Shown here in pieces: positions 45,589 to 45,746 of a stretch of DNA of 64,000 nucleotides. How positions within the stretch are numbered: position 1 is the stretch's first letter; the number at the start of each line of letters is the position of its first letter. A program made the position numbers and the translations under genes. The stretch is from Vermamoeba vermiformis. Its lineage: Eukaryota. The notes below the pieces were generated by a model that had not been told where the DNA came from, made no database searches, and worked only from the letters and a program-made list of their open reading frames with translations. The DNA lies in the NCBI GenBank assembly GCA_045837725.1, contig JBEWZL010000178.1:62001-126000 (forward strand), written 5' to 3'.

Positions 45589-45746
45589 GTACGGCTGCCG
45601 TAGTGGATGGGGATGTGAGTCGTGGTGGTTCACATACTTAATACGATACATCATATTCGTATGATGCCATTAGGTAAACCACTCATGAATTCAGGCAAAA
45701 GGATTTCAGTTCACATCTAAGAGGTTCGACCCCTCTTGGCCGTACA
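45589..45746 (+). ncRNA. tRNA-like Pol III ncRNA with a long hairpin in place of the anticodon loop
   Basis: Terminal stem GTACGGC/GCCGTAC+A, A-box TGCCGTAGTGG, B-box/T-arm AAGAGG-TTCGACC-CCTCTT, internal nested helices, and a downstream TTTTT terminator. Confidence 0.65.

Follow-up and report, generated by a model that had tools for sequence, protein, structure and literature searches.

A conserved tRNA-shaped element in Vermamoeba vermiformis is a candidate gene for a stable non-decoding RNA

Introduction

A 64,000-nucleotide stretch of Vermamoeba vermiformis DNA (assembly GCA_045837725.1, contig JBEWZL010000178.1, positions 62,001 to 126,000 of the forward strand), which was analyzed as a whole and is called the window below, carries at window positions 45589-45746 (+) an element that is shaped like a tRNA except for a long nested hairpin in the place of the anticodon arm. 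The locus raises the question of whether such an element is a tRNA gene with an unusual intron, a carrier of a small RNA, a tRNA-derived repeat or relic, or a gene for an RNA of another kind. The evidence presented here indicates that the element is probably a gene, present in a single copy, whose product is a stable RNA of about 157 nt that has the shape of a tRNA, does not decode, and may act as a subunit of a ribonucleoprotein (RNP). The surrounding DNA is nuclear and eukaryotic, with a G+C content of 36 to 46% and genes that are split into short exons.

Look-alikes of tRNAs that do not decode are known from animals (vault RNAs and mascRNA), bacteria (YrlA), and phages. To our knowledge, outside animals and trypanosomes, the small RNA polymerase III (Pol III) transcripts of free-living protists are almost unmapped. 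The element provides a candidate from this group that looks abundant, is conserved, and can easily be probed, with a promoter motif, mapped ends, and a covariance model (R1) at hand.

A tRNA-like shell around a rod-shaped insert

The minimum free energy (MFE) of 45589-45746 is -52.7 kcal/mol versus a mean of -39.5 (standard deviation, 3.7) for shuffled sequences, which corresponds to a z score of -3.55, and none of the 200 shuffles folded as well. An earlier sequence-only reading of the locus had described acceptor-, D-, and T-like arms, a helix of about 9 bp in the position of the anticodon stem, and nested hairpins inside it, and all of these are present in the sequence and in the MFE fold (Table 1). 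The fold likewise bears out the noncanonical dimensions that it had pointed to, namely, a 6-bp T stem, a helix of about 9 bp, and no variable loop. The B box of the T-like arm, the run of five T residues at 45751, and a second TTCACAT at 45629 are also where that reading had placed them. In the MFE fold, a single unpaired G separates the terminal stem from the D-like stem, and helix 3 directly adjoins the D-like arm on one side and the T-like arm on the other, with no spacer nucleotide (0 nt) before the T-like stem. The A-box-like TGCCGTAGTGG matches 10 of the 11 positions of TRGCNNAGTGG, which we take to be the consensus. Across the 64 kb, GGTTCRANNCC, the exact B-box pattern, has just three occurrences, one in each of the two tRNA genes and one in the element.

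The 8-mer GTTCACAT is present twice, at 45628-45635 and 45709-45716, and either copy can pair with 45613-45619, which gives an alternative local hairpin. The proximal copy differs in the orthologue and in the RNA reads described below, with changes that mostly keep wobble pairing.

Table 1. Coordinates of the element and of its upstream blocks in the window. L001 is the metagenome contig that carries the orthologue; DUSE, Dictyostelium upstream sequence element.
Feature	Position	Strand	Remarks
Distal conserved block TTTTGCGAATTTTAACAGAACC	45482-45503, about -107 to -86	+	20/22 identical to L001; role presumed
DUSE-like element	45523-45535	+	12/13 identical to L001
TCCCATAA	45524-45531	+	-65 to -58 from G45589; fits [AT]CCCA[AT]AA
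Terminal (acceptor-like) stem	45589-45596 / 45738-45745	+	8 bp, last pair U-G; MFE fold; identical in L001
A-box-like TGCCGTAGTGG	45596-45606	+	Read from sequence; identical in L001
D-like arm CCGT-AGTGG-ATGG	45598-45601 / 45607-45610	+	4-bp stem, 5-nt loop AGTGG; MFE fold
Helix 3 (anticodon-stem position)	45611-45619 / 45710-45718	+	9 bp; closes a domain of about 90 nt; MFE fold
Nested hairpin (rod), variable apical loop	45620-45688	+	Includes TACTTAAT/ATTAGGTA and CATCATA-TTCG-TATGATG
Variable linker from rod to helix 3, probably single-stranded	45689-45709	+	Hairpin predicted here is broken in relatives
T-like arm AAGAGG-TTCGACC-CCTCTT	45719-45724 / 45732-45737	+	6-bp stem, loop TTCGACC; identical in L001
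B box GGTTCGACCCC	45723-45733	+	Exact match to pattern; identical in L001
"Discriminator" A	45746	+	A in window, T in L001, C in RNA reads
T5 run, putative Pol III terminator	45751-45755	+	Five bases past the end of the element

A syntenic orthologue with compensatory changes

A search of the Joint Genome Institute (JGI) metagenome contigs with the protein encoded next to the element, at 46024-46494 (-), returned one contig, L001, which is 6.4 kb long and encodes a relative of that protein with 81% identity. L001 carries an orthologue of the element, 157 nt in length (L001 positions 3610-3766), that lies downstream of the gene for the neighboring protein, has the same orientation as in the window, and adjoins the same Nudix gene. 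The two copies are identical at 132 of 158 positions, versus 82 of 168 in the upstream flank and 14 of 34 in the downstream flank. Searches of the JGI metagenome contigs and viral contigs with the exact 23-mer 45705-45727, within which L001 differs, gave no match, and a pattern of the T-like arm and 3' stem with two free positions gave none in prokaryote genome contigs and viral contigs.

The differences are distributed unevenly along the element. The acceptor-, D-, and T-like parts, here called the shell, do not differ at any of their 49 nt. Helix 3 differs at 4 of 18 nt, all of them compensatory, with the pair 45612:45717 changed from G-C in the window to A-T in L001 and the pair 45613:45716 changed from A-T to G-C. 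The insert of about 90 nt differs at 21 of 90 nt; within the rod, two pairs (45626:45681 and 45654:45661) show compensatory changes, and two others (45635:45676 and 45636:45675) show changes compatible with wobble pairing. Over the 57 pairs of the fold in the two sequences, 96.5% of the cells are paired and four pairs are changed on both sides, and in a control in which the partners were slid by one to three columns, 0 to 1 two-sided pairs and 35 to 43% pairing were obtained. The apical loop of the rod is TTCG in the window, ATATA in L001, and different again in the RNA reads, and the 5' arm of the rod (45633-45655) is nearly invariant, with one change in L001 over 45633-45653. A small hairpin predicted at 45689-45692 / 45701-45704 is not kept, since it has one change in L001 and three fixed changes in the RNA reads (45701, 45703, and 45704), and the segment 45689-45709 is therefore treated as a linker.

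Covariance model R1, built from the window and L001 sequences, matches just its two source sequences in 70,447 nt, and neither genomic copy carries an A-tail or flanking direct repeats. The presence of one copy per locus at orthologous positions, without an A-tail, suggests that the element is a gene and not a dispersed repeat.

Two further features of the locus can be mentioned here. The Nudix gene lies 1.28 kb upstream of the RNA gene in the window versus about 0.3 kb in L001, and comparison of window positions 44312-45480 with L001 positions 3925-4068 indicates that the window has about 1 kb of extra sequence between the two genes. The 5' arm of the rod at 45633-45655 contains AUACUUA, presumably the same heptamer as that at the 5' end of U1 small nuclear RNA (snRNA), and the opposite strand of the rod has AG|GUAAAC, which resembles a 5' splice site; coincidence is possible.

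Transcripts of the element

Parts of the element stretch are contained in 20 sequencing runs of 17 studies, of which four (X22, X8, X9, and X3) were aligned to the window. X22 consists of raw RNA reads deposited under the same species label. Over the 381 nt aligned, its 92 reads are confined to 45584-45765. The reads are 90 to 95% like the window copy, with 0, 6, 75, and 11 reads in four identity bands and none at an identity of at least 99%, which indicates that they derive from a diverged strain or from paralogues. In these reads, 45599 C>T (15/15 reads) is accompanied by 45609 G>A (38/39 reads), a compensatory change from C-G to T-A in the D-like stem, and 45621 C>T leaves a wobble pair in place. 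Another read family, more divergent and with a loose end before 45622, has TCAT/ATGA in the D-like stem. No difference is listed over 45633-45655. Taken with the comparison to L001, the case for a real gene is solid, and covariation supports helix 3, the rod, and the D-like stem.

The X22 reads also mark the ends of the RNA. Read ends fall at 45589 and 45745, and the 3' end of the RNA maps to 45745/45746. A run of T residues followed by G precedes 45589, and C followed by a run of A residues follows 45745, the two being mirror images of each other. As no A or T run in the window is longer than 12 and the runs in the reads are at least 29 long, the latter are tails and not genomic flanks. The mirror-image tails may have arisen from snap-back extension of oligo(dT)-primed complementary DNA (cDNA) on the terminal inverted repeat, which would place the 5' end of the RNA at G45589. 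The insert is present in polyadenylated molecules that carry the whole RNA, 45589-45745. No spliced joint was found among the 92 RNA reads, from a library that would probably not capture mature tRNA. Eighty-five of the 92 reads continue into unlike sequence.

The contigs of X8 and X9, for which the RNA type is the guess of the tool, contain window-type sequence without flanks, and in that of X8, adapter sequence marks both limits, at 45610 and 45746. The X3 contig, which is DNA, extends into both flanks. The contrast between contigs without flanks in X8 and X9 and a contig with flanks in X3 fits an abundant small RNA. The X9 contig, 173 nt long, is circularly permuted, with 45697-45735 joined to 45591-45726 and the same 30 nt at both ends, and a 143-nt circle or a tandem array would yield such a contig in an assembly with k=31. 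An origin from a circular RNA or a permuted gene was considered and set aside, the 45735>45591 junction falling within the T-like and terminal stems and not at a site like a bulge-helix-bulge.

Upstream elements and the polymerase

Two blocks upstream of the element are conserved in L001 (Table 1), and the stretches beside them are only 17/52 and 11/19 identical. Between TCCCATAA of the proximal block and the first G of the RNA lie 57 nt in the window versus 56 nt in L001, and of the 53 intervening nucleotides only 22 are identical. The distal block TTTTGCGAATTTTAACAGAACC keeps its distance to the RNA gene although the distance of the Nudix gene differs (1.28 versus about 0.3 kb). The pattern [AT]CCCA[AT]AA, which TCCCATAA of the proximal block fits, is described in passages of one study as the Dictyostelium upstream sequence element (DUSE), found about 63 bp upstream of many noncoding RNA genes (PMC3188802). 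According to an extract of another, genes of both Pol II and Pol III carry the DUSE, about 60 nt ahead of the start site, and those DUSE-bearing genes that encode Class I RNAs also have T-runs (PMC7919456). At the DUSE-motif sites 57471 and 55708 of the window, no RNA-gene-like features were seen downstream.

Both orthologues have A and B boxes. In L001, a run of 10 T residues comes immediately after GTAC, and T5 and T8 runs follow the two tRNA genes of the window at a distance similar to that in the element. Given the DUSE-like motif, the A and B boxes, and the T-runs, a Pol III gene with a mixed promoter is the most economical reading, and the element is most likely transcribed by Pol III. 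Use of a DUSE-type upstream element, in combination with internal boxes of the tRNA type, may thus extend beyond dictyostelids.

The sequence-only reading had proposed an undescribed, tRNA-scaffolded Pol III RNA. The undescribed RNA on a tRNA scaffold has held up, with no Rfam match, a syntenic orthologue with compensatory changes, and reads confined to the element, and the assignment to Pol III stays a deduction from the signals in the DNA.

A proposed structure and role for the RNA

In the structure that we propose, transcription by Pol III would begin at G45589 and terminate in the T-run, directed by the DUSE-type element at about -60, possibly by the second block at about -100, and by the internal A and B boxes, and trimming would then bring the 3' end back to where the terminal stem ends, at 45745/45746. 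The RNA would fold into a tight four-way junction in which the 8-bp acceptor-like stem is stacked on the 6-bp T-like arm. The 4-bp D-like arm would be the third arm, and its GG may contact the T-like loop as in tRNA, which would give an L-shaped corner. The 9-bp helix, bearing a bulged rod of about 70 nt and a variable linker of about 20 nt, would form the fourth.

The invariance of the shell and the evolution of the rod by compensatory change suggest that the shell is read by conserved machinery and that the rod is a specific working surface. The shell may accordingly be pictured as a promoter, a handle for end processing, and a handle for protein binding or export, and its readers could include TFIIIC, RNase Z or other end-trimming enzymes, La, export factors, and other tRNA-binding proteins. 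The rod would be the working or partner-binding surface, and the RNA would be an RNP subunit in the manner of vault and Y RNAs. The lack of an anticodon loop and of a variable loop and the nonconserved discriminator indicate that the RNA is not an adaptor and probably not a pre-tRNA awaiting splicing.

A scaffold of the vault/Y type is our best guess for the function, made by analogy, and a weak one. It is doubtful that the partners are specifically of the vault/TROVE type. It is rather unlikely that the RNA is the subunit of a vault- or Ro/TEP1-type (TROVE-protein) particle with a full tRNA shape and thus represents an old, overlooked class of tRNA-shaped rod RNAs. If true, such a subunit would be a living intermediate showing that vault- and Y-type RNAs arose from tRNA genes.

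Weighing of the evidence and alternative explanations

Several observations weigh against a single-copy gene for a stable non-decoding RNA. The sequence-only reading had looked to compensatory changes in a relative as a check, and such changes were found in four two-sided pairs with L001, but 32 of 500 column shuffles of the two full sequences reach the observed covariation, and three rod pairs (45621:45687, 45630:45677, and 45641:45670) are mismatched in L001. The fold of L001 alone has a z score of only -1.80, with 9 of 200 shuffles as good. The presence of several sequence variants in X22 implies more than one copy or strain, and the window copy itself may be silent in that sample. Two positions of the T-like loop vary. 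At 45729, X8, X9, and 7 of 16 X22 reads have C in place of A, and X8 and 7 of 16 X22 reads lack 45728, which weakens the case for a true T loop and a strict B box and implies that neither is needed in every copy. The window has no excess of the DUSE motif (6 matches versus 9.1 expected), and the motif is described for dictyostelids only, a group to which the host probably does not belong. The importin-alpha encoded in the window has its closest named match in Balamuthia (67%), followed by stramenopiles (62 to 64%), with relatives at 95 to 97% in metagenomes only, and no dictyostelid is among the best 120 matches.

The main alternative to a vault/Y-type scaffold is that the tRNA-like shell carries a small RNA, with the rod excised by a Dicer-like enzyme or by tRNA-processing nucleases and the 5' arm at about 45633-45655 serving as the guide strand. 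A parallel would be found in murid herpesvirus 68, in whose Pol III transcripts a tRNA is joined to a precursor microRNA. The near invariance of the 5' arm, which goes beyond what pairing needs, speaks for such a carrier, as do the greater changes in the loop and 3' arm (6 of 18 aligned columns in L001) and one read family, with a loose end before 45674, whose 3' arm is a perfect complement of 45634-45649. Read depth in X22 does peak over 45623-45648, but the peak may merely mark where diverged reads still align, and the polyadenylated molecules hold the whole RNA. The rod is also heavily bulged, with the 9-bp helix and the linker beneath it, and no complementary target was found in the window or L001, a tiny search space. 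Excision of a small RNA is thus a quite unlikely use of the element. A tRNA-derived short interspersed element (SINE) or other retroposed repeat, or a dead tRNA gene with a hairpin insertion, would itself be without function. The X22 variants, which lie 5 to 10% from the window copy and in some cases have A-runs, would suit a repeat, as would the passage of 85 of the 92 reads into unlike sequence and the recovery of parts of the element from the 20 runs of 17 studies. However, the 64-kb window and the 6.4-kb L001 contain a single copy each, at orthologous positions; the A-runs of the reads are tails, and neither genomic copy has an A-tail or direct repeats; conservation is far higher in the element than in the flanks, and compensatory changes are present; and conserved upstream motifs travel with the element. 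A functionless repeat or relic is therefore very improbable.

A decoding tRNA with a very long, noncanonical intron, for example, a UCA suppressor or a selenocysteine-type tRNA (tRNA-Sec), would account for the acceptor-, D-, and T-like arms, the A and B boxes, and the terminator, all of which look tRNA-like. UCA is present at 45706-45708 in both orthologues, and the sequence-only reading had suggested, from the stretch TTTCAGT-TCACAT on the 3' side, that noncanonical excision could give a tRNA with this anticodon. Vertebrate tRNA-Sec genes have an upstream element and start at +1, so that an snRNA-type upstream element would fit a tRNA-Sec, and the 3' end seen in the X22 reads, GTAC followed by C and an A-run, could conceal a CCA end. 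Nevertheless, several points speak against that suggestion. Wherever the exon ends are set in the sequence, a 5-bp stem capped by a 7-nt loop with U33 does not result; at what would be position 33, directly ahead of UCA, the window has T and L001 has G; and there are no joints in the 92 RNA reads, with compensatory changes sitting within the would-be intron. ARAGORN with introns found nothing at its default threshold, and the Rfam tRNA model gave no match at E<=10. The acceptor and T stems stack to 14 bp (8+6), as against 12 bp (7+5) in ordinary tRNAs and 13 bp in tRNA-Sec; the variable region, which has at least 4 nt in tRNAs, is missing; and each of the three sources has a different discriminator (A, T, or C). 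A tRNA-Sec has a 13-bp acceptor/T stack (9/4 or 8/5), a 6-bp D stem with a 4-nt loop, UCA in a 7-nt loop, and a long variable arm, whereas the element has its 14-bp stack, a 4-bp D stem, a 5-nt D loop, and a UCA that is not in a closed 7-nt loop. Decoding by this RNA is scarcely credible, and a stable RNA that keeps its insert is the reading that we prefer.

Comparison with known RNAs

The checks with ARAGORN and Rfam that the sequence-only reading had envisaged turned up no known RNA. ARAGORN calls tRNA-Ser(UGA) and tRNA-Leu(CAA) in the window, and at the default threshold, with or without introns, it does not call the element. Relaxing the threshold to 60 to 80% gave only poor models; mismatched stems disqualified both a "tRNA-Met(cat)" whose 61-nt intron lies at position 28/29 and a "tRNA-Phe" on the reverse strand. 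No family of Rfam 15 matches the element at the gathering scores. At E<=10, the region 45400-45950 has no match to the tRNA, vault RNA, or Y RNA models and just three sub-threshold matches (10 to 16 bits), all with unrelated families; two of them fall in the flanks, and the third is at the 3' edge of the element. No description of such an RNA was found in open-access full text or in Rfam.

Compared with canonical tRNA genes (RF00005), the element is alike in its arms, the GG of the D loop, the TTC of the T loop, the A and B boxes, and the nearby T-run. It differs in its 14-bp stack, its 5-nt D loop, the lack of an anticodon loop and a variable loop, and its variable discriminator, as well as in an upstream element at -60, an apparent lack of a 5' leader, and an insert that is kept in the RNA. 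In bacterial YrlA Y RNAs and in mascRNA/MEN-beta, the tRNA-like elbow is kept for tRNA-binding or tRNA-processing proteins and decoding is lost. In YrlA, a long helix replaces the anticodon arm, and the two ends of the RNA lie in that helix while the acceptor-like stem is closed, which is the reverse of the topology of the element; mascRNA is about 60 nt long and is cut from a long Pol II transcript. Neither is known to have a sequence relation to the element. Y RNAs have a lower stem with a conserved bulged helix to which Ro60 binds, and the Ro-site motif was not seen on reading the element sequence.

The Rfam vault model RF00006 was built from animal sequences. Vault RNAs, which are bound by TEP1, occur in MVP particles, and are known from vertebrates and Trypanosoma brucei, are similar to the element in size, in their A and B boxes, in a terminal stem formed by both ends, and in a variable center. 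However, the element has no match to RF00006 at E<=10 and has a full cloverleaf-like junction with D- and T-like arms. Excerpts of published work give vault RNA sizes of 144 nt for the rat and 89/94 nt for the bullfrog (PMC10491885) and describe vault RNA genes as having internal A and B boxes of the tRNA type, with upstream elements also in the human ones (PMC7904556). According to a portion of a preprint, the acceptor-like terminal stem of vault RNA pairs both ends, and a 3' extension is trimmed by a paralogue of RNase Z (bioRxiv 10.64898/2026.10.07.757187). In amoebae, vaults and a TEP1 orthologue are described, and no vault RNA is named in the available sections of that source (PMC13100048).

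The Class I RNAs of dictyostelids, as presented in parts of two articles, are similar to the element in having a DUSE-like motif at about -60, a G start, a short terminal stem, a variable interior, and a T-run (PMC7919456, PMC3188802). They differ, in the portion of the second article that treats them, in being 42 to 65 nt long and in having a conserved 11-nt motif (CCTTACAG-type 8-mers) beside the 5' stem and no tRNA-like arms (PMC3188802). The element, at about 157 nt, does not contain the CCTTACAG-type motif.

Other features of the window

Two other features were recorded in the window. The open reading frame (ORF) at 54021-54980 (-) encodes a small-GTPase part followed by a BTB-like part and is weakly similar to scallop "racA-like" RhoBTB proteins, with 23 to 25% identity; a search with this ORF returned three weak scallop matches only. 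Just upstream of the tRNA-Leu(CAA) gene, the segment 22912-22960 (-), which ARAGORN does not call, resembles the 5' half of a tRNA in that it begins like an acceptor stem and has the A-box-like TTAGTCTAGTGGTC as well as a short stem; a T8 run follows directly, and the segment may represent either a tRNA gene that has been truncated or a short Pol III unit.

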